NCBI GenBank assembly: GCA_037443845.1
Contig: JBBINO010000002.1
Coordinates: 26,468-90,439 of the forward strand
DNA from: Acidobacteriota bacterium
Lineage (GTDB): Bacteria > Acidobacteriota > UBA4820 > DSQY01
DNA: 63,972 nucleotides
Direction: 5' to 3'
Shown here: positions 2,217 to 61,586 of the stretch, in pieces
How the letters are laid out: every line of letters starts with the position of its first letter
Position numbering within the stretch: the stretch's first letter is position 1
The notes under the pieces: generated by a model
What the model saw: the letters and a program-made list of their open reading frames with translations, nothing else
What the model was told of the DNA's origin: nothing
Database searches by the model: none
Made by a program: the position numbers and the translations under genes

Positions 2217-2268
2217 GCAGCCAGGTCGAGCTGGCCTCGCGGGCCGGTTGCCGCCGCGGGCCGTCCCG

Positions 2269-2829: not shown

Positions 2830-2849
2830 TTATCGTCTCTCCTTAGTTT

Positions 2850-4431: not shown

Positions 4432-4961
4432 TACTGCCCCTGCAAGGTAAAAGACCAGGTAACTGGAAACGTCTTCTGAAAGCCGTCGCTGTTTCGATGG
4501 GCCTTGAAGGTGACATTGAGCGTAATCGTAACGATATCGCTCGTGCCGACCAAGCTCTGCACCTCTGGTGCGGCCATCCAGTCTTTGGAGACAAGCGTCA
4601 CGGAGTACCTTGTTGACATGGAGGAGGTCACCTGGGTAGGGGCGGTTATGTTTATGGCCGGCAGCGGCGCTATGTTGTGGCCGTTAGGGTCGCTGATAGT
4701 GAAGCCTCCCGTGCAACTGTCTATCGTCCAGGCGTCTTTCGGCAATAGAGAAATATTCGGATCGTTGATCGTAATGTGAAAGTCAAAATACTCCAGATGC
4801 GTGAGCGCGGGACTGACGACAATAGCCTGTGTCGCCGGGTCCGGCCCGTCGTAAATTAAATCCGAAAGCGGGTCCAGCTTTTTATCGTGCCCGCAGCCCA
4901 AGCAGAAAAGAAGGGCCAGGGCAATCGCCCCGACCCCTAGAAACTTTGATGTGTGCGTCAT
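4431..4961 (-). CDS. small lipoprotein of unknown function, immediately downstream of pilQ
   Basis: The N-terminus MTHTSKFLGVGAIALALLFCLGCGHDKK is a lipoprotein signal with lipobox L-G-C. The mature part looks beta-rich. G+C is visibly lower than in neighbouring genes: hand-counted lines give 38-57%. Confidence 0.6.
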   Translation of the reverse strand: MTHTSKFLGVGAIALALLFCLGCGHDKKLDPLSDLIYDGPDPATQAIVVSPALTHLEYFDFHITINDPNISLLPKDAWTIDSCTGGFTISDPNGHNIAPLPAINITAPTQVTSSMSTRYSVTLVSKDWMAAPEVQSLVGTSDIVTITLNVTFKAHRNSDGFQKTFPVTWSFTLQGQ

Positions 4962-4964
4962 AGC

Positions 4965-8586: not shown

Positions 8587-9222
8587 CTATATTCCGGCTC
8601 GCGCCGGAGCCTTGTTGGCCTGGGCCGGCTGACTCCCGGCAGGCTGATACGTGAAGGTCATCGTGAAGCTGTAAACCTCCGTCTTACTGGACGCCTGCTT
8701 GATATTGCCCATCTGCGGGTTGACAAAGTCCGGAAGGGCGACCACGTTGTCGTAGTAAGTCGAGATCGTCTTGATGCTGCGCGCCATCCCGTCAACCTTG
8801 ATCTGGCCGCTTCCCGCCTGGCTCACGGACGTGTACCAGGCGCCATCCGGGAGAACCTCGACCAGCCTGTTCATCAGGCGGACCGGCAGGCTCTGCTGCT
8901 CTTTGAGCTGCCTGATCTGGTCCAGCTTCTGAGAAAACTCCGCTTTCTTCTTCTCGAGGTCCGCCACCTTCTGGCGAGCGTTTTCGTATTTCTTCAGCTC
9001 GATCTTCTGGGCGGCGATAGTGTTCTCCATTTTGGTGTTGCGGATGAAGTAGTAGGTCATGGTCAAGAGGGCGGCCGCCACGAACAAGAGAAGTATCACC
9101 CCAAGCAGCACGTATGGCGGCGCTCCTTCAGCCGATTTCGGCGCTCCTGCAGCCGTAGGGACGAAAGCGCCTGGCTTACCCTTCTTAACCCGCTCCTCGC
9201 CGAGCAAGTTGATGCGGATCAT
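8587..9222 (-). CDS. pilN: PilN (fimbrial assembly protein)
   Basis: The N-terminus MIRINLLGEE is the conserved PilM-binding INLLP-type motif. It is followed by a TM segment and a coiled coil. Confidence 0.8.
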   Translation of the reverse strand: MIRINLLGEERVKKGKPGAFVPTAAGAPKSAEGAPPYVLLGVILLLFVAAALLTMTYYFIRNTKMENTIAAQKIELKKYENARQKVADLEKKKAEFSQKLDQIRQLKEQQSLPVRLMNRLVEVLPDGAWYTSVSQAGSGQIKVDGMARSIKTISTYYDNVVALPDFVNPQMGNIKQASSKTEVYSFTMTFTYQPAGSQPAQANKAPARAGI

Positions 9223-10281
9223 CTATTCCCCCATCTTTCGAAGGGCCAGGCCCACGGCGACGGCAAAACTCGGGGCCAGGCGGTTAATGGTGTCGACCGG
9301 GAACTCCCGCTCTGAAACCGTTATATTCTGGAACGGGTTCATGATTTCCACTGGAATCCCGAAGAACTGCGAGAGGTAACGGTCGAGGTTAGGGACTTTG
9401 GTCCCTCCGCCGGACAGAATGACTTTGTGGATGGTGTTCTCGCCGGTAGTCACCCTGAAAAAGTCAATGGTCTTCTTCAGTTCGGCGCCAAACTCCTCGG
9501 TCACGGCATTCAGAATGGGTACCGCCTGCTCGGCGCGGACGCCTTCCGATCCTTCGCCCTTCTTGATCGCTTCCGCCTGGTCGAAGGTCAGGCTCATCTC
9601 GCGCTGCAGGGTATCGGTGTAGTTGTTTCCACCGGCTTGAATGTCGCGCCAGAAGAGAGGCGTCGTCCCCTTCATGACGCTGAGGTTCGTCGTGCTGGCG
9701 CCCACGTTGACGAGCACGGTAACCTCGTTGCCATTGATGGGATAGTTGTTTTCGTAAGCGTTCTGGACGCAGAAGGAGTCAATGTCAATCGCCGAGGCGT
9801 TAAGCCCGGCCTGCCCCAGGATGGAGGAATACTCGCCGATCAGATCCCGCTTGGCGGCCACCAGGAGGACGTTAAGATTGCCCGTGGCGGGATCACTGTC
9901 CAGGACCTGGTGGTCAATCTTGACCTCCTCCAGGTCGAAGGGGATGTACTGGCCCGCCTCCCACTGGATGGCCTCGGCAAGCTCCGCCTCGCTCATGGCG
10001 GTCATCGTGATCCGCTTCGTGATCACGGAGTTGCCATCCACGGAGGTCGCGGCATTGAAGTTCTTGACCCCTCCCTCCCTTACGAGCTTCTGGATGGCGG
10101 CTATGACGGCGCCGGAGTCCATCACGGTCCCGCCGACCACGGCTTCAGGGGGAAGCGGCTCTATGCCGAACGCCTCCAGCTTGAAACCCTTGCCCTTGCC
10201 TAGATCCTTGAGCTCCACCATCTTGACGGCGGAAGACCCAATGTCCAGTCCCAACAGGTTCTTGCTTTTTGAGAAGAACAC
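9223..10281 (-). CDS. pilM: PilM (actin-like ATPase of the T4P alignment complex)
   Basis: LGLDIGSSAVKMVEL..., VNVGASTTNLSV and ILSGGGTKVPNLDRYL are actin/FtsA-fold phosphate motifs. The start is GTG with a GGAAGGGGAG RBS. Confidence 0.92.
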   Translation of the reverse strand: MFFSKSKNLLGLDIGSSAVKMVELKDLGKGKGFKLEAFGIEPLPPEAVVGGTVMDSGAVIAAIQKLVREGGVKNFNAATSVDGNSVITKRITMTAMSEAELAEAIQWEAGQYIPFDLEEVKIDHQVLDSDPATGNLNVLLVAAKRDLIGEYSSILGQAGLNASAIDIDSFCVQNAYENNYPINGNEVTVLVNVGASTTNLSVMKGTTPLFWRDIQAGGNNYTDTLQREMSLTFDQAEAIKKGEGSEGVRAEQAVPILNAVTEEFGAELKKTIDFFRVTTGENTIHKVILSGGGTKVPNLDRYLSQFFGIPVEIMNPFQNITVSEREFPVDTINRLAPSFAVAVGLALRKMGE

Positions 10282-48146: not shown

Positions 48147-49067
48147 ATGAATGCTCTGGCCTACAGCAGGGTTGCAAAGACGTTCGGCAACGTTGAAGCG
48201 GTCAAGCCGCTTGACCTTGCCATCCCAGCGGGTGGCATCTTCGGCCTTCTGGGCCCCAACGGCGCGGGAAAGACGACACTCATAAGGATGACGATGGGCA
48301 TCTACCTGCCCGACGATGGAGAGATCACGGTCCTGGACAGGCCGCGCGGACAGGAGACTGGCGCCATGCTCGGCTACCTGCCCGAGGAGCGCGGGCTCTA
48401 CCCGAAGATGAAGGTGGGAGAGCTCCTGCGCTTCTTCGGCTGCCTGCGCGGGCTCCGTTCACCGGAGGCCGCGAAGCTGGCCTCCGCCGGGCTCAAGCGT
48501 CTGGGCCTTTCGCAATGGGAGGAGAACAAGGTTGACGAGCTCTCCAAGGGAATGCAGCAGAAGATTCAACTTCTCGTCGCCATCCAGCACAGGCCCAAAA
48601 TTGCCATCCTCGACGAGCCTTTCTCCGGACTCGACCCGGTGAACGTGGAGTTGTTCATGGAGGTCATTCAAGAGGCCGTCAGGGACGGGATGACCATAGT
48701 GCTCTCGACGCACCAGATGGAACAGGTGGAAAAACTCTGCCATTCGATCGCCCTGATCAACAAAGGCGAGATCGTCCTCAAGGGCGACGTCGGGGAGATC
48801 AGAAAACAGTATGGCGCGAGAGCCGTCAGGGCCGAGTTCTCCGACGGGGCGACCCTTTCCCCCGCGGACTTCGCCTCGATCTCAGAGAAAAGCATCCTCC
48901 ATCCCAACGAAGCCCGATTCTTCCTCCGCCCCGAGGCGCACGCGGGCATGGTCCTGAAGCGGCTGTTGGAGCTTCACGTGAAGGTCTCGAAGTTTGAGGA
49001 GGCACAGGCTTCCATGCACGATATTTTCGTCAAGGTGGTCACGGGGGAGGACGACCATGCGAACTGA
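48147..49067 (+). CDS. ABC transporter ATP-binding protein (ABC-2/NatA-like)
   Basis: Walker A is GLLGPNGAGKTT, the signature is LSKGMQQK, Walker B is IAILDEPFSGLD and the H-loop is STHQM. A C-terminal accessory domain is present. Confidence 0.93.
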   Translation: MNALAYSRVAKTFGNVEAVKPLDLAIPAGGIFGLLGPNGAGKTTLIRMTMGIYLPDDGEITVLDRPRGQETGAMLGYLPEERGLYPKMKVGELLRFFGCLRGLRSPEAAKLASAGLKRLGLSQWEENKVDELSKGMQQKIQLLVAIQHRPKIAILDEPFSGLDPVNVELFMEVIQEAVRDGMTIVLSTHQMEQVEKLCHSIALINKGEIVLKGDVGEIRKQYGARAVRAEFSDGATLSPADFASISEKSILHPNEARFFLRPEAHAGMVLKRLLELHVKVSKFEEAQASMHDIFVKVVTGEDDHAN

Positions 49068-50349
49068 CTGGGGAAATATCTACGCCATCGTCAAGCGCGA
49101 ATTCCTCGAACGGGTCCGCAAAAAGTCGTTTCTCGTGACCACGCTTGTAACGCCGCTAATCTTCGGAGTCCTGATGTTCTTGCCGGTCATCCTGCAAGTC
49201 GTGCAGACGGGCAAGCCGGCTTCCGTCATGGTGCTCGACAAGACCGGGTGGGCGGGCAGCGCCGTAATCGCCGCCTCGGCGAAACCGCGTGGCGCCTCGT
49301 CCACGATCGAGGGCCAGGCAGAGCGCGGCGCGATGAACGCGGCCACCTTCAAGGCCGCGCCCGGTGATGCCAACCTTGACCAGATCAAAATTGAAATCGG
49401 GGACGGCAAGGTTGACGGGCTGCTCTTGCTCGAGAACGACCCATCGAACGAGTTGAAAGCAACCTATTACGGCCAGAACGTCTCCAACCCCCAGCTTTTG
49501 CAGATGCTTGACAGCCGCTTGAATTCAGCGCTCATGGAGCACCGCATCGAGGGCTTGGGCCTCGACAAGGCCCTCTCCGAGAAGCTGAAAGGGCGCGCTG
49601 AGGTTGAAACCATCAAAGTCGAGAAGGGGGGCAAGACGCGCAAGGGCTCGATCATGGACTTCCTGATGCCCATCGCCCTGGCGCTGGTAATCTACATGAT
49701 GATTATCATGTACGGCGTCGCCATCATGAACGGCGTGCTTGAAGAGAAGAACAACAAGGTTGTCGAAGTGATCCTTTCCGCGGCCCGGCCCTTCGAACTG
49801 ATGATGGGGAAGATAGCCGGAATAGCCGCCGTCGGCCTTCTGCAATACGCCATCTGGTTCGCCCTGGGCGCCGGCCTCTACCTGTCGAACCCCATGAACT
49901 TCCAGTCCCATGTCGAAGGCCCCATCATCAAGCCCCTCCAGTTGGCGCTGCTCGTACTCTACTTCCTTTTGGGGTTTATCTTCTATTCGAGCCTTTACGC
50001 GGCCGTGGGCGCCACTTGCACCACGCAGCAGGAGACTCAGCAGTGGCAGATGCCCATAACCTTCGGCTTGGTCATACCCTTCGTTCTCATGATGCCAACG
50101 CTCCAAACGCCGAACGCGTCGTGGGTAGTCTTCCTGAGCCTTTTCCCGGTTTCCTCTCCCATCACGATGCTGTTGCGCACTGGAGCGGTGGAAGTCCCCT
50201 ACTGGCAGCTCGCGGCAAGCCTGGCGCTTTTGGTTTTTGGAACAGTCGCCGTAGCGTGGGCGGCGGCCAAGGTTTACCGCGTCGGCATCTTGATGACGGG
50301 CAAGCGTCCGAGCATACCCGAAATTATCCGCTGGATACGCCAAGCCTGA
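49057..50349 (+). CDS. ABC-2 family permease (NatB-like)
   Basis: The ATG at 49057 follows GGGGGAGG and overlaps natA by 11 nt. The product has an N-terminal TM segment, a large extracytoplasmic loop and 5 C-terminal TM helices, which is ABC-2 type topology. The last 29 codons plus the stop form the left copy of the 88-bp direct repeat. Confidence 0.85.
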   Translation: MRTDWGNIYAIVKREFLERVRKKSFLVTTLVTPLIFGVLMFLPVILQVVQTGKPASVMVLDKTGWAGSAVIAASAKPRGASSTIEGQAERGAMNAATFKAAPGDANLDQIKIEIGDGKVDGLLLLENDPSNELKATYYGQNVSNPQLLQMLDSRLNSALMEHRIEGLGLDKALSEKLKGRAEVETIKVEKGGKTRKGSIMDFLMPIALALVIYMMIIMYGVAIMNGVLEEKNNKVVEVILSAARPFELMMGKIAGIAAVGLLQYAIWFALGAGLYLSNPMNFQSHVEGPIIKPLQLALLVLYFLLGFIFYSSLYAAVGATCTTQQETQQWQMPITFGLVIPFVLMMPTLQTPNASWVVFLSLFPVSSPITMLLRTGAVEVPYWQLAASLALLVFGTVAVAWAAAKVYRVGILMTGKRPSIPEIIRWIRQA

Positions 50350-50350
50350 G
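50263..50350 (+). repeat. left copy of perfect 88-bp direct repeat (putative attL)
   Basis: I compared this base by base with 54771-54858: GCGGCCAAGGTTTACCGCGTCGGCATCTTGATGACGGGCAAGCGTCCGAGCATACCCGAAATTATCCGCTGGATACGCCAAGCCTGAG. I saw no mismatch. Confidence 0.92.
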
Positions 50351-50494
50351 GGCGGTGGCGACGGCGCTGTTGCCACGTTGAAAGCAACGCGTAACGATTG
50401 TGCCCGCTACTGGGCGGTACATGCTGCCCCCTCTTTTTGCTTCAGTGGTAAGCGCGCCATTTCCGCCGCGAGCGCCCCTCTGATTTTCGTTGTT

Positions 50495-50524
50495 TTGACA
50501 GATCGCCTCTTTTATTGCTAGCAT
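50495..50524 (+). promoter_or_regulatory. candidate strong sigma70-type promoter inside the islet
   Basis: I read TTGACA (50495-50500), an 18-nt spacer, then TAGCAT (50519-50524). The predicted transcription start falls about 6-11 nt upstream of, or at, the tRNA-like 5' end. Confidence 0.4.
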
Positions 50525-50534
50525 ATTCAGCCGG

Positions 50535-50561
50535 GCCGAAGTGGTGGAATTGGCAGACGCG
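50535..50561 (+). pseudogene. tRNA-Leu 5'-half-like fragment (acceptor 5' strand + D arm only)
   Basis: GCCGAAGTGGTGGAATTGGCAGACGCG is nearly identical to the canonical bacterial tRNA-Leu 5' end (acceptor GCCGAAG, U8-G9, D arm GTGG-AATTGGCAGA-CGCG). I could not fold any anticodon arm, T arm or complementary CTTCGGC acceptor strand downstream. Confidence 0.6.
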
Positions 50562-50911
50562 ATTTGGATGAGTGGGGAGGATCGCGGCGGTCGTTGGCCT
50601 GTTGAACCAAACAAGCGGCATGGAGCTTATGATTGAGTTTTGGAATCTGGTACTCTAGCAAGCTCGCTCCGCGGTCCGCGTTGCTCACGTGCTACGCGAC
50701 TGCTCGCCTTCGCGGGCGGGGCATATCCCCCCCCCCCCGCAGGGGGGCCCTGTGGGAACCCACAGCGGCTCCCTGCGACAGGCTACGGGGAATAGGAAGT
50801 ATCTCGTCCACAAATGGCCTCTCTAGGGGGCCCCCTTTGCAAAGTAGAAGCATGCGGGATCCCGTTGTTCTTCAAGAAAGGCATTCACCAAGCGAAAAAG
50901 GAGGGTAAATC

Positions 50912-51790
50912 ATGAATTTAAAAGGACGTTCAATCTGGACTCTCTGCTTATGCTTGCTGGCTATTTCCATTCCCTTCTTGGCCATGAAATGTAGCGCTTC
51001 AGCAAGTGCCAAGGTTACACACGACTGGCAGTGCCACCAGGGAACAGAGGTCGGGGGGAGCGTTACTGGCAGCTGGCTTGTGGAGCCCAATCTTTCCGAG
51101 GTAGGTATCGTCGTAGTTCCTCCCAGTTGGTTGGAGTACCAGGACGTCAGTTCTCAAGCCACACTGTCGTTGCAGGGGCAAGACGCCTCCGGCAACACGA
51201 TTATCCAAACTGTAGTAATGCCATTAGCGGCTCCAGGAAGGAATGTTGTGGCGCCGTCACCGGGCTCGCTCAGTTATGACTTGACACCTACCGCCGACCA
51301 GCAAAACAGCTATAACAGTTTCACAGCAGCCGTTGAGCCATCGAGTTCGGTTGATTTCACGTGCAATTTCTCTGTTGGGGATGAGCGAATTCTCCAACTG
51401 TCAAGGGCTGTGTATCAACCCTATAGCGTCCAAGTGAGCATTTACAAGGCCGGGACGGATGTAGGCGACTTCACTCTCACGCAATCGCTTTCCGCAATTT
51501 GGAAAGGGTATTTGCTTTCAGCAATTTCTCAGGTTCCCCCGCAGGCTTGGGCTACTGGCAAGCCATTCAAGCCCACGTACCAGACCTTGCTTCAAAACGC
51601 CGTCAGACAAAGCATGGCCGAATGGGATGGGGAGGATCCAGTTTCCGCTAACCGGAATCTGCTCATCGCTATGGATCACCTGAATCAATATATTTCGGAT
51701 CCTGCACAGAGGGACAACTTGTACAGCATTTTCCTTAAGGTGCAGCAGCACGTGCAGAACGTCGCCAGTAGAGTGCCCGAGACCCCATGA
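50912..51790 (+). CDS. secreted hypothetical protein (islet cassette gene 1)
   Basis: An AAGGAGG RBS sits 7 nt upstream. The signal peptide is IWTLCLCLLAISIPFLAMKCSASASA. The N-terminal half is beta-rich and the C-terminal half is helical. I recognise no family. G+C is low. Confidence 0.65.
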   Translation: MNLKGRSIWTLCLCLLAISIPFLAMKCSASASAKVTHDWQCHQGTEVGGSVTGSWLVEPNLSEVGIVVVPPSWLEYQDVSSQATLSLQGQDASGNTIIQTVVMPLAAPGRNVVAPSPGSLSYDLTPTADQQNSYNSFTAAVEPSSSVDFTCNFSVGDERILQLSRAVYQPYSVQVSIYKAGTDVGDFTLTQSLSAIWKGYLLSAISQVPPQAWATGKPFKPTYQTLLQNAVRQSMAEWDGEDPVSANRNLLIAMDHLNQYISDPAQRDNLYSIFLKVQQHVQNVASRVPETP

Positions 51791-52944
51791 ATCCTTGCGT
51801 ACATAAGAGTAGCCTAAAGGCGGGGGGCACGGCCCCCCGCCTCGTCTGGCAACCAATACAACTGCTCTTATGCCTCATTCTGGTTGGGACAATGGCGTCT
51901 TGCGCAACTCATTTTGCGCATCTTGCAGACAGGGGGCCCAAATCCATGGATGGCGAGAGTGGTTCAGCTTCCACCGACATCACCAAGCTTGCGTTGGAGA
52001 ACTGTCACCCCGTTTATTCCGAGACAATGCGTAACGGCAAGGAGTTGAGGGTCTTTGCTTCGGATGGCTTTCATCTAAATTATCCGGCGCTATTAGCCGA
52101 CTGCAATCGCATGATGGAAGTCCTCGCGGAATTCTCGCCTCGACCGCTTCAGAAAAACCTTGCCCTTTTCTATTTTGCCACCGACAAGGCTCCGGACGGC
52201 TGGCGCTGGTCCATGCCGGTGACTGATACGGTGAACTTCATATTGGTTTTTTCGAATGGCCAGGGAAATAGCGACAAGCCGAGTTTCGGCGCAGACAAGG
52301 GCCATGACTGGAACACCACCTCAGGGGAGTGCGCCATTGCGGGGTTCCTCTGCCATGAGTTGACGCATCTTGTTGCTCCGGTCTTCTTCATGAACGCTCG
52401 CGGGATGATGCACCGGCACGCGGGGAGTGGCTGGTTCGGGGAAGGCTTGGCGGAGTACGCAAACTACCTAGCTTGGGATGGAAGCGACCTTTGCACTTGG
52501 CAGAGGGCGGACGCTTCCTTCGCGCTTCTGGCGTTTGAAGATCGATCCCGGCGGAAGCATCTTTGGCGCTGGCAATCCGGGATCAAAAATGACTGGAATG
52601 CGTATGCGGCGAATAATAACGGAGAGGAACATCCGACTTGGCCGGATATCACGAGCGCCTCCCGAGCCACATTTATGGCCCCCGACTACACCACGGCACT
52701 CGGAGCTTTTCTCTTTATGGAACGGATAAAAGGGCGGAAGGAACTGCTGGAGAGCATTCAGCGTATCGTCGCCGGGCAACACTTCCAGGGGCAATCTTTC
52801 TATGACAGCCTCCATAGAGAACTAGGCTTTGATATACGGGAAATCACGTCAAAAGAGATACGTCAGATGGCCGCATGTGCCAACCGGGACGGTTCCTGCT
52901 CTGGTTCGCCAATATTTCCCGAAGGCGGCAAAACTAGGGAATGA
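51787..52944 (+). CDS. lipoprotein-type zinc metallopeptidase, gluzincin / peptidase-MA-like (islet cassette gene 2)
   Basis: It overlaps gene 1 as ATGA. The lipobox-like sequence is LILVGTMASC. HELTH (an HExxH motif) is followed 23 residues later by WFGEGLAEYANY. That HExxH...EGxAEY arrangement is characteristic of MA-clan (Peptidase_MA_2-type) domains. Confidence 0.62.
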   Translation: MNPCVHKSSLKAGGTAPRLVWQPIQLLLCLILVGTMASCATHFAHLADRGPKSMDGESGSASTDITKLALENCHPVYSETMRNGKELRVFASDGFHLNYPALLADCNRMMEVLAEFSPRPLQKNLALFYFATDKAPDGWRWSMPVTDTVNFILVFSNGQGNSDKPSFGADKGHDWNTTSGECAIAGFLCHELTHLVAPVFFMNARGMMHRHAGSGWFGEGLAEYANYLAWDGSDLCTWQRADASFALLAFEDRSRRKHLWRWQSGIKNDWNAYAANNNGEEHPTWPDITSASRATFMAPDYTTALGAFLFMERIKGRKELLESIQRIVAGQHFQGQSFYDSLHRELGFDIREITSKEIRQMAACANRDGSCSGSPIFPEGGKTRE

Positions 52945-53465
52945 AAATGCTATCCTACGCTCCGCCGCATTTTCGGGGTCTCTCTATACTATGCGGGATG
53001 GGAGCTTCCCTTTTTTCTTGTCAGTTTCTTTCTCTCTGGATGCAATATCTAACGCGCTACAAGCCTGCCATGACGCTTGGCAATTGGTTCTTATGGGGAC
53101 GGGTTCTTAGCAAGGGATTCTTAGTGGCGAACATCTTTCCCAACACTAGAGTCTGGCAGGAAGCTTCACGAACGTTTTTCTTGGCAATCGCCTGCTTTGC
53201 TGCTTTCGTCGTATGGAGGCGCACCAGGAAGAATCTGGACTGCGTCTTTCTTGGAGTGTCGTTGGGAGCGGCCACATCTACCCTTGTGGATTTACTCCGT
53301 TTGGGGGCCGTAGTTGACTATTGGCTTCTGCATGTCCCTTCCCTTGGGTTTGCGGTCGCCTTCAACCTCCCAGACATACTCATTTCGATGGCCACCCTCC
53401 TGCTAGCATTTCGTCTTTCGTGTAAGAAGGTTGTGCCCAGCGATGATCACACCACCAGTGAATGA
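52941..53465 (+). CDS. divergent signal peptidase II (LspA, A8 aspartic peptidase)-like membrane protein (islet cassette gene 3)
   Basis: It overlaps gene 2 as ATGA and has about 4 TM helices. The C-terminal half LGVSLGAATSTLVDLLRLGAVVDYWLLHVPSLGFAVAFNLPDILISMATLLL aligns by eye to E. coli LspA [47 protein letters not shown]. Both Asp positions are retained (xLxD and FNLxD). The N-terminal N-x-G-A-A-F box is degenerate (SKGFLVANIF). Confidence 0.45.
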   Translation: MKMLSYAPPHFRGLSILCGMGASLFSCQFLSLWMQYLTRYKPAMTLGNWFLWGRVLSKGFLVANIFPNTRVWQEASRTFFLAIACFAAFVVWRRTRKNLDCVFLGVSLGAATSTLVDLLRLGAVVDYWLLHVPSLGFAVAFNLPDILISMATLLLAFRLSCKKVVPSDDHTTSE

Positions 53466-53915
53466 GGGTAGCAGAGGCAATGCTATGCCCTTGACTGCGT
53501 GTTTAGGGAGCGATACCTGTGCCGCAGGTGGGTTGTTTGAAAGACCGGTAGGTTGCTGGTGAGCGGGGGAGGCTCATTGGGGCGTTGCGTTGATGCGGTT
53601 GCAAATTCGCGGCGCTTGTCCGCCCTTGGCGGGAGGGGCGCGTCTCTCTTCGCGAGCGGTGCGCTTGGTGATCGCAGGGAGACGTCCAGCGCTCCTGGCC
53701 GCTCCGTCATGACTCCTACTCGTCGTTTCGTGATCTTTGCCGGCTTTGGGGCGGCTGGTGACGGCATGGCTGAGGTTCCTAACTGGCTTTCGGTTGTTCC
53801 GGCTTGTTCGTTCGCTCTTCCTACTGTAGTGTCTCTGAATCGAGTTTACCTGTTTGATCCACCATGTGCAGATATCTTAGGCTGTCATGCCGGTCAAGCT
53901 ATTTGCGAGACACTA

Positions 53916-54204
53916 CACTACCGGCCCGATTGAAGCTCCTACGCGGCCATCCGTTGTCCCTACGCGCCTTTCTATCGCTCCTTCCGGCTGTTTCAGGACT
54001 CCTGCGATGGTAGGAAGGGCGGGCGGGCCTGTAGGGATGATGGACGGCCTTGTAGGAATTATGAGAAGGTTCGTAGGAGCCATAAGCGGGCCAGCGGGAA
54101 CACCAAACAGGCTTGTAGGAATGCCAGGCGTGCCGGTAGGAAGTTCAGGCTGGCATGTAGGAATGACGAAATGGCCTGTAGGACGCACAAACGTCCCGGT
54201 TGAA
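53916..54204. repeat. strictly 21-bp-phased array of a TGTAGGA(A/G) core: about 9 copies in one orientation abutting about 4 inverted copies
   Basis: GTAGGA-type cores start at 54010, 54031, 54052, 54073, 54094 (degenerate GCGGGA), 54115, 54136, 54157 and 54178. Inverted TCCTAC-type cores start at 53937, 53958, 53979 and 54000, with a weak one at 53916. The arrays meet at TCCTGC-GATG-GTAGGA. Confidence 0.85.
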
Positions 54205-54329
54205 AGGTTGAACGTCCATCGAGAAATCTCTTATGTCTCGGCCCGGTCGGCGGGCTGGGGTCTGCCGTTTCAAGTCGTGCCAGAGGGTTTGTTTCATTGG
54301 GCCAGTTTTTCGGAGAGGAGGTTGTGCAG

Positions 54330-54857
54330 ATGTCGAAACCGAAGTCGGGAATTTCGGAGAGGCTTGGCGGAGCGAACGTGGGGATATCGAACACGATGCC
54401 GGCTCCGATTCCGCTCTTCCTGATGATGGCGGCCGCGCTTTTCGACAACGCCAGCCACACCGAGGCCATCGCCGCGCGGCTCGCCGATTTCGGGTACACC
54501 CAGCAGAAGCTTTCGGACGAGCGGTCGAAGATAGCGGAGATGTCCGCCGCCGTCGCGGCCCACGAGTCGGCTTCGGGGGCGGCCCAGCAGGCCACCTTCG
54601 AGCAGAACCGCGCGATGGAGGCGCTCGGCTCCTGGATGAGCACCTTCGTGAAGGTCGCGAAGGTGGCCCTCAGAGAAGAGCCCCAGCTTCTCGAAAGGCT
54701 CGGTATTCTCAAGCGCAACGGCAAGACTGCCGCGCAGCGCAAGGCGTCCTCCAGAACCGCCGCGACCCGCGCGGCCAAGGTTTACCGCGTCGGCATCTTG
54801 ATGACGGGCAAGCGTCCGAGCATACCCGAAATTATCCGCTGGATACGCCAAGCCTGA
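54330..54857 (+). CDS. hypothetical helical protein whose last 29 codons lie in the right 88-bp repeat (C-terminus identical to the ABC-2 permease)
   Basis: A GGAGAGGAGG RBS lies 9 nt before ATG 54330. The body is Ala/Glu/Gln-rich and helical ([28 protein letters not shown]...[26 protein letters not shown]). G+C matches the backbone. The tail [28 protein letters not shown] is identical to the permease tail. Confidence 0.5.
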
Positions 54858-54858
54858 G
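54771..54858 (+). repeat. right copy of perfect 88-bp direct repeat (putative attR; displaced original 3' end of the permease gene)
   Basis: It is identical to 50263-50350. Confidence 0.92.
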
Positions 54859-54864
54859 CCGGCC

Positions 54865-54895
54865 GAGCCCATCCCCTTCCCGGGATGGGCTCTTT
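54865..54895 (+). terminator. rho-independent terminator-like hairpin right after the right repeat
   Basis: GAGCCCATCC-CCTTCCCG-GGATGGGCTC is a 10-bp stem followed by TTTG. It starts 7 nt after the repeat ends. Confidence 0.6.
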
Positions 54896-55036
54896 GCCCC
54901 GCCCTGTTTGGGCGCCACCCGCTCCGATTGACAGCGGCCCGCCCCGAAGATATATTTCGATCATAGGGGTTTGTTCGCTCGCAGTTCTGCCGGTCTTGTT
55001 TTGCCTGCGCGGGAAGACATTCAGGGAGGTGCCGCA

Positions 55037-56404
55037 ATGAAGAGAGCAGTCTGGATAATCGTTGCCGTAGCCGTCGTCGCAGCACTGGCAATTCCTATCG
55101 TGAACCTCGTCAACGGCGGACCCAAGAACACGCCCATGGCCACGTGCGTTGACCCGAAGGGCGCTCCGGTGACGGCGCGCCTCGAAGCCAAGTGCGCCAA
55201 CTGCCACGCCGACGGAACGCCGCTGCCGTTTTGCGCCCACTGGCCCATAGCCAACTCTCTCGTCTCCGCGGACGTGAGCAGAGGGCTCAAGTGGGCCGAT
55301 CTGGGACGCGAGTTGAACAGGCAGGATCCTCCCACCGTCAGCGAAGCCACTCTGGCCAAGCTTGAAAGGGTGGTTTCCATGGGCACGATGCCCCCGGCGC
55401 GCTTCGTCGCGCTCCACTGGAGTTCCTCTCTCTCGGAGGCCGACAAGGCCGCCGTCCTGGGATGGATCCACGAAACAAGGCGCTCCATGGCGCAGGCCAG
55501 CTTGCCCGACTCTATGGCCACGCTGGCGGTCGCACCCATTCCCGCCCACGTCGAAGTTGACGCCGCAAAGGCGGCCCTCGGCGAGAAGCTTTACAACGAC
55601 CGGCGATTATCGGGAGACGACACCATAAGCTGCGCCTCCTGCCACGACCTTGCCAAGGGCGGAACCGACAATCTGCCGGTCAGCGACGGCATACGCGGCC
55701 AGAAGGGGGGAATCAACGCCCCAACGACGTTCAACGCCCTTTGGCAGTTCAAGGATTTCTGGGACGGACGCGCCGCGGACCTCAAGGAACAGGCCGGAGG
55801 GCCGCCGCTGAACCCCGTGGAGATGGGCGCAACTTGGGATGGAATCGTGGCGAAGCTCGATGCCGACAAGCCTTTCGCCGCGGAATTCAAAGCCTCCTAT
55901 CCGGAAGGTTTCAACTCGGACTCGATCACCGGCGCGATCGCGATTTACGAGAAGACGCTGTACACTCCGAACAGCAAGTTCGACCGCTATCTCGCCGGAC
56001 AGAAAGACGCCCTTTCGGCGAACGAGCAAAATGGATGGGCCAGGTTCCAGGAGCTTGGCTGCGCGACATGCCACGTGGGCAAGCTGCTCGGAGGCACCAG
56101 CTTTGAACTGATGGGCAGGGAGGGTGACTATTTCGCGGACCGCGGGCGGCCGACGGACGCCGATCTGGGCCGGTACAACCACACGAAGAATCCAGCCGAC
56201 AAACATTTCTTCAAAGTTCCCACTTTGCGCAACGTCGCCCTAACTTTTCCCTACTTCCACGACGCTTCGGCGCCGAACCTTGCAACGGCTGAGAAAACAA
56301 TGGCGCGCTACCAACTTGGCGTCAACCTGTCCGAGCGGGACACGGCGGACATAGAGGCTTTCCTTCGGAGCCTTACGGGAGAGTTTCAAGGCAAGCCGCT
56401 TTAA
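55037..56404 (+). CDS. cytochrome c peroxidase (CCP/MauG family) with extra N-terminal haem-binding domain (tri-haem)
   Basis: The N-terminal TM segment is followed by CANCHADG...MPPARFVALHW, a Haem_bd-type domain. The CCP core has CASCHD and CATCH motifs plus FKVPTLRNVALTFPYFHDAS. A GGGAGG RBS precedes ATG 55037. Confidence 0.9.
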   Translation: MKRAVWIIVAVAVVAALAIPIVNLVNGGPKNTPMATCVDPKGAPVTARLEAKCANCHADGTPLPFCAHWPIANSLVSADVSRGLKWADLGRELNRQDPPTVSEATLAKLERVVSMGTMPPARFVALHWSSSLSEADKAAVLGWIHETRRSMAQASLPDSMATLAVAPIPAHVEVDAAKAALGEKLYNDRRLSGDDTISCASCHDLAKGGTDNLPVSDGIRGQKGGINAPTTFNALWQFKDFWDGRAADLKEQAGGPPLNPVEMGATWDGIVAKLDADKPFAAEFKASYPEGFNSDSITGAIAIYEKTLYTPNSKFDRYLAGQKDALSANEQNGWARFQELGCATCHVGKLLGGTSFELMGREGDYFADRGRPTDADLGRYNHTKNPADKHFFKVPTLRNVALTFPYFHDASAPNLATAEKTMARYQLGVNLSERDTADIEAFLRSLTGEFQGKPL

Positions 56405-56415
56405 CGATTGTCGCG

Positions 56416-56892
56416 TCAGACGTTGCCAGCGCCGCCCTGGTCCTTCCGGGGCGGCGGTTCTTTTGGGAGGCTTTCGGGAACGGAAGGCGCCACCGGCGGC
56501 GGCTCCCCTTTCAGGACGGTCGTCTTTCCGCCCGTCTCCAGCGTGGCGGCTACCACTTGCCACGGTTTGTCCGGCAGCTTCTCGAGCGTGACAACCGCTT
56601 TCCCCTCACCCTTGTCGCCCTTCAATGAATAATGCAGCTCGGCCCTGCCGCTGCCGTTGTTGATGTTGACCGACCCCTGCGGAAAGAGGCCGAAGCTGCT
56701 TATCGTGCCCACTTGGGCCTGAACTTGCGGGTCGGCCTTGAGGAAGGCCTTGGCCGCGTCCTGCGCGCCGTTCTTCATCAGGAATCCGAACGGAGACATA
56801 ACCACCGCCACTATGCAGCACAGGCAGAGCAGTACCACGAGGACTATGCCGCCGATCACGCCGAGAAAAAACTTGTCGGTGCCTTTGTTCAT
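56416..56892 (-). CDS. Coa1-like (cytochrome oxidase assembly protein 1 family pattern) membrane-anchored protein
   Basis: A TM anchor is followed by AKAFLKADPQVQAQVGTISSFGLFPQGSVNINNGSGRAELHYSLKGDKGEGKAVVTLEKLPDKPWQVVAATLE. This matches the recurrent bacterial Coa1/DUF pattern that I remember. The C-terminal tail is Pro-rich. Confidence 0.5.
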   Translation of the reverse strand: MNKGTDKFFLGVIGGIVLVVLLCLCCIVAVVMSPFGFLMKNGAQDAAKAFLKADPQVQAQVGTISSFGLFPQGSVNINNGSGRAELHYSLKGDKGEGKAVVTLEKLPDKPWQVVAATLETGGKTTVLKGEPPPVAPSVPESLPKEPPPRKDQGGAGNV

Positions 56893-58511
56893 GCGCTCCC
56901 CTCCACCACCTCTTCCAGCCTCTTGCCGAAGGTACGGCAGAAGTGGAACGGGTCGTGCTGCGAGAATATATAGTGTTTGAGGTCCTCGCCGGACAGCTCC
57001 GCCTCGTTGTACGAACTGTAGAGCCCTTCCCCTAGCTGGAACCCGATCTGCTCGGAAAGGCCGTAAAGCGTTTCGACGTCCAGCTTAAGGTAGCGCTGCA
57101 TCTCCATCCCGGAAAGGCGGGAGCAGCCGCCGGCCTTGTCCATGTCGCTGAAAAAGTCGAGCGTGCCCTTCAGCACGCTGAGGTGCCGCTGCGCGTAGGC
57201 CCGCTCCTTGGCCGTGCGAAGGCGCCCGAAGTCCTCGACCGCGCGGCGCATCTGCTCGCGCGTGCGGTAGTGGCGCATCGGGTTTATGAGCTTGGACGCG
57301 ACAAACCCGCTGGCGAAATAGTGGAGCCGGCGGATGAACGCCTCCCCGCCTTTGCCCACGTCCAGATCAACCCCCATTAGGTAATGGGCCGCCTCCTGAA
57401 CGGTTCTGTTCACGTCGAGCATGGGAATATAGATTATGTTTCCCTGCTTGATGAAGAGCGCCCGCCCGTCCTCGATGATCTTCGCCTGCGTGCGGCCGGG
57501 CTCCTTTCTGAAATAGGGCCCGTTCAGAAATTCCAAATCCCTCATCGTGAAGACCTGGAAGTCGTCATCTCGCTTCAGCTTCAACGCGAAAAGGTCCTTG
57601 AGCACCCTGATGTACTCGCGGAGGCTTTCGGTCAAGTCCGGCGCGTCGTCGAGGTCGCCGCCTCCGGAGCGGTTGGGCTTGCAGTACCCTTGCATCGCGC
57701 AGAGCCCCTCGCCGCCGTGCTCAAGCCAGGAAAGGTTCGTCTGCACCTTGATCCACGGAGCAGTGTTGTTTACAAGGTACCTGTTTTCGTCAATGCGGAA
57801 CCAGCCGAACGGCTCCGCGCCGGCGCGCAGCCTCCGCATGATGACGGATTCGCTGTTTTGAAATAGGAGCACTGGATGGAAACCCCTCGCCTCGAGTTCC
57901 AGCGGCAGATGGCGCGGGCCGAGGTGGAGGTCGCCTGCCAGCGCGACGACCAGCGCCCCTGGGTTCTCGCTTTTGATCTCGGCGAGTCTTTTCGCCATGA
58001 AGACGTCCCGCGCTTTGAGCCCCCCGCTCGCGTTTATTCCATGGGCCTTGAGCTTGGCCGAACGGGCGAAGGAGAGTATGGGCTTGTAGTGGGAAAAGTC
58101 GAATCCCCAATGGGCGAAGAAGCCTATCTTTTCGAGGAAGGTCCCCTCGTCCTCGATCTCGCCGCTCAGGTATTCCGCCAGCGCGCCGTCGTGGGCGGCC
58201 TGGACCATCTCCAAGGCGAGGACAGGCCGGTGGCCGGCGTCGCAAAGCGCCCTTATGACTTCGAGGTACTGCCTCTGCGCCTGGTCAAGCGTGTGAAAGT
58301 CGGCGACGAGCGCCAGCCCGGCCGCGGCGGCGCTTTCGATGAATTCGTCGCGGCTGCATGGCTCGGGCTTGGCCCTTTCCAAAACGGAAGCGTAGGAACG
58401 GTAGTAGCGCCTCAAGTCACGGGGCTCTGGCCCCTCGATCTCGCGCACCTGCCTTTTGAGCCCCTTTAGGAGCTTTCTGAAGAAGGCGAACCCGGTCAGC
58501 TTGCGCGCCAT
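56889..58511 (-). CDS. ChaN/Tiki-superfamily (haem-binding uptake-like) domain protein with unknown ~270-aa C-terminal domain
   Basis: LALVADFHTLDQAQRQYLEVIRALCDAGHRPVLALEMVQAAHDGALAEYLSGEIEDEGTFLEKIGFFAHWGFDFSHYKPILSFARSAKLKAHGIN follows the ChaN pattern (GExH...EMf...W...Y.pl..fAr). It has no signal peptide. The start was set at ATG 58511. It overlaps the downstream gene as ATGA. Confidence 0.6.
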   Translation of the reverse strand: MARKLTGFAFFRKLLKGLKRQVREIEGPEPRDLRRYYRSYASVLERAKPEPCSRDEFIESAAAAGLALVADFHTLDQAQRQYLEVIRALCDAGHRPVLALEMVQAAHDGALAEYLSGEIEDEGTFLEKIGFFAHWGFDFSHYKPILSFARSAKLKAHGINASGGLKARDVFMAKRLAEIKSENPGALVVALAGDLHLGPRHLPLELEARGFHPVLLFQNSESVIMRRLRAGAEPFGWFRIDENRYLVNNTAPWIKVQTNLSWLEHGGEGLCAMQGYCKPNRSGGGDLDDAPDLTESLREYIRVLKDLFALKLKRDDDFQVFTMRDLEFLNGPYFRKEPGRTQAKIIEDGRALFIKQGNIIYIPMLDVNRTVQEAAHYLMGVDLDVGKGGEAFIRRLHYFASGFVASKLINPMRHYRTREQMRRAVEDFGRLRTAKERAYAQRHLSVLKGTLDFFSDMDKAGGCSRLSGMEMQRYLKLDVETLYGLSEQIGFQLGEGLYSSYNEAELSGEDLKHYIFSQHDPFHFCRTFGKRLEEVVEGSA

Positions 58512-58687
58512 GAGGACTCCCAAGGCCTGAATTATACTCCACCTTGAAAGCTCTCTTGGGACACCGTCGTACTTCAACGCTCGAAAACCGGCCTCCACCG
58601 AATATCATACCGCCGCGGGCGATTTTGGGAAAAGACTGGCTCCACGCGCTTTTCCTCTCGATGTGGTATCTTTGGCCCGGAGGGTGA

Positions 58688-59938
58688 ATGGCTCAAGAAC
58701 GCGTGGTCCTGGCCGCGGTGGCACTGCCGGGAGTTGGCTCCGCCCTTGTTGACGATTATCTTGGCGAGCTCGCGGAGCTGGTGGCCACCGCCGGAGGCGA
58801 AGTGGCCGAGCGCTTCGTGCAGCCCAGGGAGCGCCTCGACCCGGCGAGCTACATCGGCGCCGGCAAGGCGGCGGAGATATCGGCCTTCTGCCGCGAGAAC
58901 GACGTGCGCACCGTTGTTTTCGAAGGCGACCTGACGCCGGCCCAAGTCCGAAACCTCGAGAAGATATTCGAGCGAAAGGTCATGGACCGCACGGCCGTCA
59001 TCCTCGACATCTTCGCCCGCCGCGCCAGGAGCCGCGAGGCGAAGACGCAGGTGGCGCTCGCGCAGTACACCTACCTCCTGCCAAGGCTCACCCGGGCGTG
59101 GTCGCACCTTTCGCGCCAGGCGGGCGGCATAGGCACCAGAGGCGTCGGCGAGACCCAGCTCGAAACGGACCGGCGCGTCATAAGAAGGAAGATATCCCAA
59201 CTCGGCAAGACGCTCGCCGAGATTTCAGCCCACCGGGAGGTGCAGAGGCGCAGGAGGCGCGAGACCTTTGAAGTGGCGCTCGTCGGGTACACCAACGTGG
59301 GGAAATCGCTCCTCCTGAACAGGCTCGCCTCGGCGAGCGCCCGCGTCGAGGACAAGCTCTTCGCCACGCTGGACACCACCTACAGGCGGCTTCCCCTCGA
59401 ATCCGCCGGACGTCAGGCTCTGGTAATTGACACCGTTGGCTTCATCAGAAACCTTCCGCACCACCTCGTCGCCTCGTTTCGCTCCACGCTGGAGCAGGCC
59501 AGAGAGGCGGACCTGCTCCTGCACGTCGTGAACGTCAGCCATCCCCTCTTCGAGGAACAGGCCGCGGCGTCCAGAAAGGTCCTCTGCGAGCTTGGCCTCG
59601 ACTCGGCCCCCGCGATAACGGTGCTCAACCAGATCGACCGCGCGCCTCAGGGGCTTATTGAAAGAGGACGAGGCCTATACCCGGAGGGCCTCTTCGTTTC
59701 GGCGATGACCGGCCAGGGGCTTCCCGCGTTGAAGGAGGCCATCGCCTCCCGCATCCGCCAGTCCTCCGATGGCACGAAGCTTTTCATTCCCTACTCCAAC
59801 TGGCCCGATTTTCTCTCCATTCGCCCGGCGGTGCGCATCATGCACGAGTCGTACGGAGACGAAGGGGTTGAAGTGGTCATACGGGCCCCGGAGGGGATTA
59901 TCGCCCAGGCTCGCGCCATGGCGGCCGGCAAGCCTTGA
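58688..59938 (+). CDS. hflX: GTPase HflX
   Basis: The N-terminal HflX domain contains IFARRARSREAKTQVALAQYTYLLPRL and GETQLETDRR. The G domain contains VALVGYTNVGKS, DTVGF and LNQID. Confidence 0.93.
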   Translation: MAQERVVLAAVALPGVGSALVDDYLGELAELVATAGGEVAERFVQPRERLDPASYIGAGKAAEISAFCRENDVRTVVFEGDLTPAQVRNLEKIFERKVMDRTAVILDIFARRARSREAKTQVALAQYTYLLPRLTRAWSHLSRQAGGIGTRGVGETQLETDRRVIRRKISQLGKTLAEISAHREVQRRRRRETFEVALVGYTNVGKSLLLNRLASASARVEDKLFATLDTTYRRLPLESAGRQALVIDTVGFIRNLPHHLVASFRSTLEQAREADLLLHVVNVSHPLFEEQAAASRKVLCELGLDSAPAITVLNQIDRAPQGLIERGRGLYPEGLFVSAMTGQGLPALKEAIASRIRQSSDGTKLFIPYSNWPDFLSIRPAVRIMHESYGDEGVEVVIRAPEGIIAQARAMAAGKP

Positions 59939-60053
59939 TTTTTCGCGCGCTTGGCGTGAAAATGGCTCACTTGAGAAGCCGTGCCCGGCGCCTGGCCGTC
60001 AGCCCGATGGCGGTGCCATGCACCTTAAATCCGCCGCTAGAGGGGAGTCCGAC

Positions 60054-61586
60054 ATGACGGTTCAGATTGACGGGGAAAATCTTAAGATCGAAGAAGTGGT
60101 ACGCGTAGCCAGGCACGGGGAGAAAATCGAACTGGCGCCACGCGCCATCGAAAAGATCAAGCGGTGCCGGGCCATGCTCGAAAAGAAGATCGGCGCCCAC
60201 GAGATCATGTACGGCGTCAACACCGGCATCGGCGAATTCTCCGAAGTGGTCCTGACCGACGAGCAGGTAAAGCAGTTCCAGCGCTACCTCATATACAACC
60301 ATGCCGCCGGGATAGGCGATCCCGCCCCAATCGAGCACGTCCGCGCCGCGATGACGAGCAGGATCAACGTCCACGCCAAGGGCTTTTCCGGCTGCCGCCC
60401 GGAAATACCCCTTACCTACGCGGCGATGCTGAACGCCGGCATCACGCCCGTCGTCTGCGAGAAGGGCTCCGTCGGCGCGTGCGGCGACCTTGCCCCCATG
60501 AGCCAATGCGCGCTCTCGCTTATGGGCGAGGGCGAGTGCTTTTACGAAGGCCGGAGGATGGCCACGCGCGAGGCGATGGAAAAAGCGGGCGTTCCCATAC
60601 CGGGCCTGATGGCCAGGGACGGACTCGCCGCGATAAACGGCTCGAACCTCATCACCGGCATGGCCTGCCTCGAACTATACGACGCCGAGCGCTGGACAGC
60701 CCAGGCCGAGATAGCGTGCGCCATGAGCCTCGAAGCGCTCCTCGCGAACATGCGTCCTTACGAACCACGAATACACGAGCTGCGCGGATTCAAGGGAGCG
60801 ATGACCTCGGCCACCAACATCAGAAAGGTCACGGCGGGCTCCGACCTCGTCACCGGAAAGCTCAAGGTCAAGGTTCAGGACGCCTACTCCATGCGCGCCA
60901 CGCCCCAGGTCATAGGCACCCTGAGGGACCAGTTGGCCCACGCGAGAAAGCAGATCGAGACGGAGCTCAACGGCGTCGCCGACAATCCGATTTTCGCCCC
61001 CGACGAGGACAAGGTCTACACCGGAGCGAACTTTCAGGGAACGCCGGTAAGCCTTCCCCTCGACGTAGTGGGAGCGGCGGTCACGATGGTCAGCGTTCTT
61101 TCGGAGCGCCGCCTCAACCGCCTCCTCAACCCCGCGTTGAGCGTCGGCCTGCCCGCCTTTTTGACGAAGGGCGCGGGGATGTTCTCCGGCCACATGCTGA
61201 GCCAGTACACGGCGGACATGCTCGTAGTCGAGCAGAGGATTCTCTCCGCGCCGAGCTACGTGCAATCCATCCCCGCCGCCGCCGACCAGGAGGATTTCGT
61301 CTCGATGGGCATGAACGGAGCCCTGAAGACCAGACAGATTCTCGACAACGCCAGCGGCGTGCTGGCCATAGAGATGATCGCCGCCGCGCAGGGGCTGGAC
61401 TTCCGTGACTTCAGCTTCGGCGCGGGCACGAAGGCGGCCCACCAAGCCGTCCGTAAGGTCGTCGCCCACCTCGAGACCGACAGGCCGCTTTTCAAGGACC
61501 ACAACGCCATGAAGGCTGCTGTCTCCGCCTGCTCGGTGCTGGAGGCGGTCCAGGCTGAAATAGGCCCGCTGGCCACCTCGTGGTGA
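60054..61586 (+). CDS. histidine/aromatic amino-acid ammonia-lyase family enzyme with Ala-Cys-Gly in place of the Ala-Ser-Gly MIO triad
   Basis: YGVNTGIGEF, NHAAGIG, GSVGACGDLAPM, QDAYSMRATPQV, NPIF, GANFQGTP and DQEDFVSMG are all HAL/PAL-family blocks. The start was set at ATG 60054 after AGGGGAG. The longer track ORF merely extends into the hflX 3' region. Confidence 0.9.
   Translation: MTVQIDGENLKIEEVVRVARHGEKIELAPRAIEKIKRCRAMLEKKIGAHEIMYGVNTGIGEFSEVVLTDEQVKQFQRYLIYNHAAGIGDPAPIEHVRAAMTSRINVHAKGFSGCRPEIPLTYAAMLNAGITPVVCEKGSVGACGDLAPMSQCALSLMGEGECFYEGRRMATREAMEKAGVPIPGLMARDGLAAINGSNLITGMACLELYDAERWTAQAEIACAMSLEALLANMRPYEPRIHELRGFKGAMTSATNIRKVTAGSDLVTGKLKVKVQDAYSMRATPQVIGTLRDQLAHARKQIETELNGVADNPIFAPDEDKVYTGANFQGTPVSLPLDVVGAAVTMVSVLSERRLNRLLNPALSVGLPAFLTKGAGMFSGHMLSQYTADMLVVEQRILSAPSYVQSIPAAADQEDFVSMGMNGALKTRQILDNASGVLAIEMIAAAQGLDFRDFSFGAGTKAAHQAVRKVVAHLETDRPLFKDHNAMKAAVSACSVLEAVQAEIGPLATSW

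Follow-up and report, generated by a model that had tools for sequence, protein, structure and literature searches.

Some mobile elements insert at the 3' ends of genes. Integrase-encoding elements such as e14 and phage 21 replace the 3' end of icd in Escherichia coli, and cis-mobilisable elements (CIMEs) are elements flanked by attachment (att) sites that carry neither recombination nor conjugation genes, as in Streptococcus thermophilus, where they are found at the fda 3' end; the repeats of CIMEs are the ~27-bp att sites of a known cognate family of ICEs (elements that are both integrative and conjugative) in the same species. Here an insertion that bears a likeness to both is described: a 4.4-kb block located behind an ABC-2 family permease gene in a 63,972-nucleotide stretch of DNA (termed here the window) from an Acidobacteriota bacterium (GenBank assembly GCA_037443845.1, contig JBBINO010000002.1, positions 26,468 to 90,439 of the forward strand). 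The block is flanked by perfect 88-bp direct repeats, the right-hand one of which is fused in frame to a truncated gene of the PQLLE family. On the whole the block is probably, though by no means certainly, a passive, recombinase-less acquired patch that was captured by the host's general recombination and repair, with no dedicated site-specific system; it looks like a one-off recombination product, not like a new kind of mobile element.

Capture of this sort has precedents. Campbell-type integration and homology-facilitated illegitimate recombination (HFIR) are on record for Acinetobacter, Streptococcus pneumoniae, Pseudomonas stutzeri and E. coli (PMC3240628; de Vries & Wackernagel 2002, as cited in PMC5361080). 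Among 60 insertions selected in E. coli as candidate illegitimate events, 56 were single crossovers of a circular molecule, and the 14 single crossovers that were sequenced had duplicated 109-950 bp of the homologous segment (PMC3240628). HFIR has also been proposed for the displaced 3' ends found in toxin loci--that is, in Rhs, contact-dependent inhibition (CDI) and type VI secretion system (T6SS) loci, where a variable gene end, new to the locus, arrives on the incoming DNA along with an immunity gene and where such displacement recurs (PMC5361080). The CIME class, for its part, is recorded in ICEberg 2.0 (PMC6323972).

Results

The duplication and the empty site

The segments at 50263-50350 and 54771-54858 are identical at 88/88 positions when compared base by base, as an earlier reading of this DNA made from its letters alone (termed here the first-pass annotation) had reported; direct repeats thus stand at both flanks of the block, as they do in integrative elements. 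Within the 64-kb window no other repeat, direct or inverted, reaches 35 nt at high identity, and in a shuffling control two matches of the repeat arose in 0/100 shuffles. The left copy lies in codon register with the permease open reading frame (ORF) and comprises the final 28 permease codons (not 29, as first counted), the stop codon (50347-50349) and 1 nt. Thanks to the duplication, the permease gene stays intact despite the insertion. At 88 bp the duplication differs from the short target-site duplications (2-15 bp) of insertion sequences and transposons, and the repeat analysis found no inverted repeat pairing the two insert ends (i.e., no terminal inverted repeats). Nor is there an obvious dif-like core in the 88-bp repeat, which is itself coding sequence and was not put to a formal Xer/dif (IMEX) test.

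Relatives of the permease come from Acidobacteriota metagenome-assembled genomes and are 64-90% identical to it. In the closest of these, contig L001 (permease protein 90% identical), the gene order is ATPase, permease, ~170 nt, di-haem cytochrome c peroxidase, and two further genes ordered as in the window. The intergenic region of L001 can be aligned, hairpin and TTGACA/TATATT promoter included, with what follows the right repeat copy in the window, and nothing lies there between the permease and this native hairpin, promoter and peroxidase gene. In other words, the site is unoccupied in L001, as expected of the target of an integrative element, and the check for an empty site that the first-pass annotation had proposed has given the permease joined directly to its native downstream sequence. 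Because the L001 flank is colinear with that of the window but lacks the insert, 50351-54770 is truly inserted DNA by comparison with the nearest known relative. No second copy of the permease tail and no cargo gene occurs at any of 12 related permease loci.

The native hairpin behind the right copy, likewise seen in the first-pass annotation, is real (-28.9 kcal/mol, z = -4.4) and is kept in L001; the terminator scan did not list it because its tail is only TTT. The same annotation had found no such hairpin behind the left copy, which is mistaken: a terminator-like hairpin with a run of T follows that copy too (Table 1).

The right junction

At its right end the insert carries a PQLLE gene that runs into the right repeat copy. 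The product scores 84.1 bits against NF052641 (cutoff 80), matching only positions 103-211 of the 211 in the model, as compared with 167 bits over positions 2-211 for a full-length homologue (P0002). Homologues are ~245 residues long and are built of two internal repeats, the first of which is missing from the window gene. In addition, the right repeat copy stands in frame in place of its last 5-8 codons: the match to the family ends after ...AATR-AAK, where homologues go on with K and 4-7 further residues (of 31 homologues, 14 have ATR-AAK at the junction and 22 have ATR-x-A-K), and DNA similarity to PQLLE homologues extends 9 nt into the repeat, up to 54779. The permease reads ...W-A-A-A-K-V-Y at this same point. 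The Ala-Ala-Lys codons at the right join, GCGGCCAAG, are thus common to the PQLLE family and to the permease, with GCGGCCAAG(G) shared between them.

From these alignments, the right boundary of the insert is a 9-10-nt microhomology join (GCGGCCAAGG) between the PQLLE gene and the permease, and because that boundary coincides with the shared Ala-Ala-Lys codons, the fusion of the two is in frame. Such a junction would appear to be an illegitimate join, unlike a dedicated attP. This tells against the proposal, made in the first-pass annotation, of a site-specific element whose replacement 3' end serves as an att site, given that the right copy is fused in frame to a truncated PQLLE gene at Ala-Ala-Lys. 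A search with the 40-residue permease tail as query gave no candidates for other ORFs fused to such a tail.

Composition and gene content of the insert

The insert is a compositional mosaic, consisting of an operon with a low G+C content at third codon positions (GC3) followed by a host-like, damaged PQLLE gene. The three cargo genes have 53% G+C and a GC3 of 0.56-0.62, as against 61.6-62.9% G+C and a GC3 of 0.75-0.85 in the flanking host DNA (58.9% G+C in the permease itself), while the insert comes to resemble the host over its final 440 bp (65% G+C, GC3 0.86). Hence the contrast in composition that was pointed out in the first-pass annotation is real, but it is both smaller and less even than had been thought.

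Upstream of the three cargo genes (c1, c2 and c3; see Table 1) lies a non-coding region (50351-50911) that bears a strong promoter-like site; downstream of them lies a second (53466-54329) that holds a phased array of 21-nt repeats. The HExxH and GWFxEGxAEY motifs of c2, which are MA-clan-like, are conserved throughout its family, a very rare one with only 13 representatives among 1.84 billion proteins. One moderately close homologue of c2 (P0039, 44% identity) is adjoined by LspA, so that the same c2-LspA pairing is found there. Judging by motifs only, the operon, in which c1 would supply a secreted protein, probably serves the processing of cell-envelope lipoproteins.

Two details concern the upstream non-coding region. 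What looks by eye like the 5' end and D-arm of a tRNA-Leu (~27 nt at ~50541-50567, GCCGAAGTGGTGGAATTGGCAGACGCG) is called by neither ARAGORN nor Rfam and is at most a stub; a Rfam scan of the insert as a whole gave no matches. The region also contains a run of 12 C (50727-50738), within which an independent Logan contig, L033, begins with 21 C (its positions 1-21); this difference reflects either length variation or a difficulty in sequencing or assembly.

Mobility genes, other copies and occurrence of the strain

The lack of a recombinase, remarked upon in the first-pass annotation, is confirmed by the six-frame scan that it had called for: searched with Pfam hidden Markov models in all frames, 50351-54770 yields no recombinase, transposase or Rep, the only match being Peptidase_A8. 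PHROGs, NCBIfam and PADLOC likewise assign no mobility or defence family to the insert, and no recombinase occurs among the ten ORFs of lowest GC3 elsewhere in the window. The block has, therefore, neither the tyrosine or serine recombinase of its own that would mark an integrase island, nor the transposase and inverted repeats of a transposon; nor does it have the makings of a plasmid replicon (that is, iterons and a Rep), as the PQLLE model shows no Rep-like fold (see below) and nothing in PLSDB matches.

Searches of 5.8 billion protein clusters, 1.84 billion representatives, IMG/VR and PLSDB, and comparison with the 12 permease loci, brought to light neither a second copy of the insert nor a related element. 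A degenerate pattern based on the 88-bp repeat had 0 matches in JGI metagenomes and IMG/VR, and neither cargo nor insert DNA turned up in IMG/VR or PLSDB. The strain itself is seen in one sequencing run only, SRR11582168, whose Logan contigs L033 and L034 match 50727-53768 and 55007-60227 at 100%, neither of them reaching a junction; a 455-residue peroxidase product is called on the latter. Look-ups of the exact protein sequences of the permease, the ATPase, the fusion ORF and an ORF covering the array found nothing on record.

The PQLLE family and its arrays

Besides its lost 3' end, the window PQLLE gene shows an in-frame internal deletion of ~90 codons (54330-54420), as a result of which domain 2 comes straight after the N-terminal 20 residues. 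An AlphaFold model of the full-length homologue P0002 (mean predicted local distance difference test score, pLDDT, 88.8) is all-helical, with two long helical hairpins; a fold search of the PDB with this model gave no match better than E = 0.036, and sequence comparison matched PQLLE to no solved structure. Going by this model, the PQLLE protein is predicted to be no hidden recombinase or Rep and to have no Rep-like fold. A literature search found no paper on the PQLLE gene family, the repeat arrays as such not having been searched for.

Elsewhere PQLLE genes and their arrays occur in long chromosomal contigs of up to 2.7 Mb, and none of the genes is found in PLSDB or IMG/VR. Neither the cargo genes nor the permease occurs at any of ~90 PQLLE loci. 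No direct repeats flank PQLLE modules at other loci, and hence there is no sign that the module itself is mobile.

Phased 21-nt arrays like that of the window precede most other members of the family: at 60 of the 66 other loci with enough upstream sequence to be counted, the strongest self-similarity within the 650 nt upstream of the PQLLE gene lies at a lag of 21 or 42 nt. Arrays consist of up to 15 direct units or of two converging half-arrays of 11 units each, and their 6-7-nt cores differ from locus to locus (GTAGGA, GAAGGA, CAAGGA, TCAAGCA, TTAGCA and others). The window array folds into a long hairpin (z = -4.8). Gene callers place ORFs of 140-250 codons over such arrays; nevertheless, a reading of them as a heptad-repeat protein was rejected, and the arrays are non-coding cis elements, because the loci do not agree on any frame, counted from the core, that stays open, and because some arrays are mirror-symmetric. 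A further idea, that they act as a sponge for CsrA, was set aside, as the cores at several loci have no GGA. This by-product of the analysis may matter more than the insertion: Acidobacteriota PQLLE genes are consistently preceded by arrays, of up to 15-22 units.

At one of the loci listed in Table 1 (L027), a cluster of repeated 40-220-nt segments of 80-100% identity (4796-6400 and 9211-9325) lies beside a tRNA-Pro gene, and parts of these segments recur just upstream of the PQLLE array on the same contig.

The region downstream of the permease

The peroxidase gene adjoins the permease gene both in the window and in L001 (where it occupies 2255-3634). In L002, L006 and L007 there is no peroxidase gene at this place and a gene of 158 codons directly follows the permease, and in more distant relatives other genes stand downstream of it. 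Because the neighbours differ in this way among L001, L002, L006, L007 and the farther relatives, the region downstream of the permease is a variable spot.

Table 1. Features of the permease locus and of its insert, in window coordinates, and 21-nt arrays at other PQLLE loci, in the coordinates of the contigs named
Feature	Position	Strand	Remarks
ABC-2 family permease gene (target)	49057..50349	+	Pfam ABC2_membrane_3, 2.5e-48
Left 88-bp repeat copy	50263..50350	+	permease 3' end
Inserted DNA, 4420 bp	50351..54770	+	missing from the empty site of L001 in the alignment
Terminator-like hairpin and T-run	50412..50439	+	62 nt beyond the permease stop codon
Promoter-like site (TTGACA, 18 nt, TG-TAGCAT) upstream of cargo operon	50495..50524	+	10/12 matches
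c1, 292-aa protein with signal-like N-terminal segment	50912..51790	+	no known family; GC3 0.58
c2, 385-aa putative lipoprotein	51787..52944	+	HExxH and downstream GWFxEGxAEY motifs; GC3 0.62
c3, signal peptidase II (LspA) paralogue	52941..53465	+	Pfam Peptidase_A8 7e-11
Phased 21-nt repeat array	53916..54204	+	~4-5 units (TCCTAC-like cores) followed by 8-9 units (GTAGGA cores)
PQLLE-family gene, internally deleted and C-terminally fused	54330..54857	+	NCBIfam NF052641
Right 88-bp repeat copy	54771..54858	+	identical to left copy
Microhomology at right junction, GCGGCCAAGG, Ala-Ala-Lys	54771..54780	+	common to PQLLE family and permease
Native hairpin 3' of permease	54865..54895	+	conserved in L001
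Native promoter-like site of peroxidase gene (TTGACA, 17 nt, TATATT)	54928..54956	+	conserved in L001
Di-haem cytochrome c peroxidase gene, native right neighbour	55037..56404	+	Pfam CCP_MauG 7.8e-56
Array, L022	5480-5850
Array, L025	5930-6320
Array, L027	9450-9890
Array, L046	1000-1460
Array, L056	817-1150
Array, L058	200-515
Array, L065	1640-1930

Discussion

Probable capture without a recombinase

As regards the donor molecule and the order of events, we infer the following. The incoming DNA would have carried a copy of the permease 3' end, then the cargo and then the PQLLE gene, either as a circle closed by a loop-out at the PQLLE/permease microhomology in a sibling genome or as a linear fragment of a conspecific strain in which the cargo stood directly after the permease. 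The donor permease tail would have paired homologously with the resident one, and a second join would have formed where the PQLLE 3' end and the permease share the 9-10-nt microhomology (GCGGCCAAGG). Either a single crossover of the Campbell type or HFIR would in this way have left the shared 88 bp as a perfect direct duplication, kept the permease intact and pushed the original tail, the hairpin and the peroxidase promoter downstream; HFIR with a linear donor would give the same product in one step.

Such a capture would explain both limits of the repeat. It would end 1 nt past the stop codon because homology ends there between alleles with different downstream regions, and it would begin at the microhomology because the second join was made there. 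The terminator-like hairpin behind the left copy would be accounted for as well, because the left edge of the cargo would once have been a natural permease-downstream region, as would a mosaic that includes a damaged gene. What is observed fits these expectations: the duplication starts at the microhomology and runs 1 nt beyond the stop codon of the permease, the downstream regions of relatives vary, and one joint has the marks of an illegitimate one, at the short microhomology GCGGCCAAG(G).

Several points weigh on the other side. Neither the donor arrangement (the permease followed directly by 50351 onward) nor a circular form was found, and the source molecule is hypothetical. A homology of 88 bp is short for efficient RecA-dependent recombination. 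The strain apparently occurs in one environmental sample only. Finally, a duplicated gene 3' end that preserves its target is also a classic outcome of integrase-mediated insertion.

This last point leads to the unlikely but most serious competitor, in which a larger element with a tyrosine or serine recombinase entered the permease 3' end by way of an identity exceeding 88 bp, and in which a deletion between GCGGCCAAG in the PQLLE gene and in the right permease fragment later removed the recombinase module. Islands inserted by an integrase typically show direct repeats that duplicate a gene 3' end and have relatives in which the site is empty, the truncated and internally deleted PQLLE gene shows that deletions have occurred here, and the microhomology suits a deletion joint equally well. 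Such decay requires, however, an unusually long att identity and a deletion endpoint that falls within a small segment, and no remnant of a recombinase appears in any frame; moreover, no related intact island occupies the site in the 12 related loci or occurs in any collection searched. It is less probable again that the block is an intact non-autonomous element (cis- or trans-mobilisable, a satellite, or CIME-like) whose 88-bp ends are the att sites of a recombinase encoded elsewhere, which was the principal reading of the first-pass annotation. The perfect repeats, the preserved target gene, the missing on-board recombinase and the empty site in a relative all agree with it, and the hairpin behind the left copy and the cargo promoter lend the block a tidy modular look. 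But the Ala-Ala-Lys match at the right boundary would then be due to chance, and the element would end in a broken gene. No other copy of the element, the cargo or the 88-bp sequence is present in IMG/VR, JGI metagenomes or PLSDB, none of the ten lowest-GC3 ORFs of the window is a recombinase, and the cargo family numbers just those 13 representatives among 1.84 billion. The position of the right boundary within the PQLLE gene, the mosaic insert with its damaged gene, the lack of a second copy, the rarity of the cargo family and the terminator-like hairpin behind the left copy all weaken the reading of a tidy satellite bounded by att sites. Among the three options left by the first-pass annotation, that of a decayed or passive islet has come closest, whereas movement by an unrecognised route has gained no positive evidence.

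The chances are slim that the block arose by template switching (microhomology-mediated break-induced replication) in one cell, with replication exiting after the permease stop, copying 4.4 kb from elsewhere in the genome and returning at GCGGCCAAG, 88 bp upstream of the exit. A templated insertion flanked by a duplication is the expected outcome of this mechanism, which would also account for the microhomology at the return junction and for the host-like composition of the PQLLE part; yet 4.4 kb is large for it, the low-GC3 operon would have to reside elsewhere in the same genome as well, and there is no evidence for the second full copy, complete with an unbroken PQLLE 3' end, that it predicts. 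Slimmer still are the chances of an assembly artefact, in which the chromosome is empty at the site and the assembler has threaded in a separate 4.5-kb circle that shares the 88 bp. If k is below 88, a de Bruijn graph takes on one and the same topology for an integrated copy and for a free circle plus an empty site. The contigs of SRR11582168 match the cargo and the right flank at 100% but reach neither junction, and that run has no record of complete genes for the permease, the ATPase or the fusion ORF. Against this, a circle without a recognisable replication gene would scarcely be maintained unless an integrated copy gave rise to it by excision, and PQLLE genes and arrays are otherwise found in chromosomal contigs of up to 2.7 Mb; besides, the joint between PQLLE and the permease tail must exist in any case, so that the biological conclusion would be little changed. 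Most improbable of all is that the 4.5-kb unit is a still-active non-autonomous integrative element, in which the PQLLE protein and its phased 21-bp array would make up a hitherto unrecognised module for handling DNA (in maintenance, partition or recombination), by which the unit is mobilised via the 88-bp sequence.

If capture by general recombination and repair is the right explanation, this locus is a clean natural example of bacterial gene gain without mobile-element machinery, in which a short homology and a microhomology join add an operon, spare the target gene and mimic the footprint of an integrase. Such cases caution against labelling every repeat-flanked insertion a mobile element.

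Relation to known systems

By analogy, the structure would work like a Campbell-type or HFIR insertion, while resembling a CIME or a decayed island. It resembles integrase-encoding elements of the e14 and phage 21 type in that the gene 3' end is duplicated, the target remains whole and the original terminator has been moved to the far side; those elements, however, encode an integrase beside att, and the 3' end that they substitute is usually similar rather than identical, whereas here there is neither an integrase nor a remnant of one in any frame. Like a CIME, the block sits at the 3' end of a protein-coding gene between direct repeats, has no integrase or relaxase and contains cargo genes only. 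It differs from CIMEs in that no cognate element or integrase is known for it, in that its repeat measures 88 bp as compared with ~27 bp, and in that a microhomology joins one repeat to an unrelated gene that has been truncated.

The orphan 3' ends of Rhs, CDI and T6SS effector genes (PMC5361080) offer a different parallel: there too recombination proceeds via a conserved part of a gene, such that the old 3' end is displaced downstream and new sequence comes to lie behind an intact gene. In the present case, by contrast, both tails have the same sequence, the cargo bears no relation to the permease and a single event is seen. As for Campbell-type and HFIR integration, the known cases are laboratory events with duplications of 109-950 bp or with deletions of recipient DNA, whereas here the event is deduced from one natural genome, the homology amounts to 88 bp only and the donor is unseen. 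The likeness nevertheless extends to each main feature of the locus: an insert flanked by a direct duplication of exactly the shared homology, one joint that lies at a short G+C-rich microhomology, no requirement for an element-encoded enzyme, and a target gene that is preserved.

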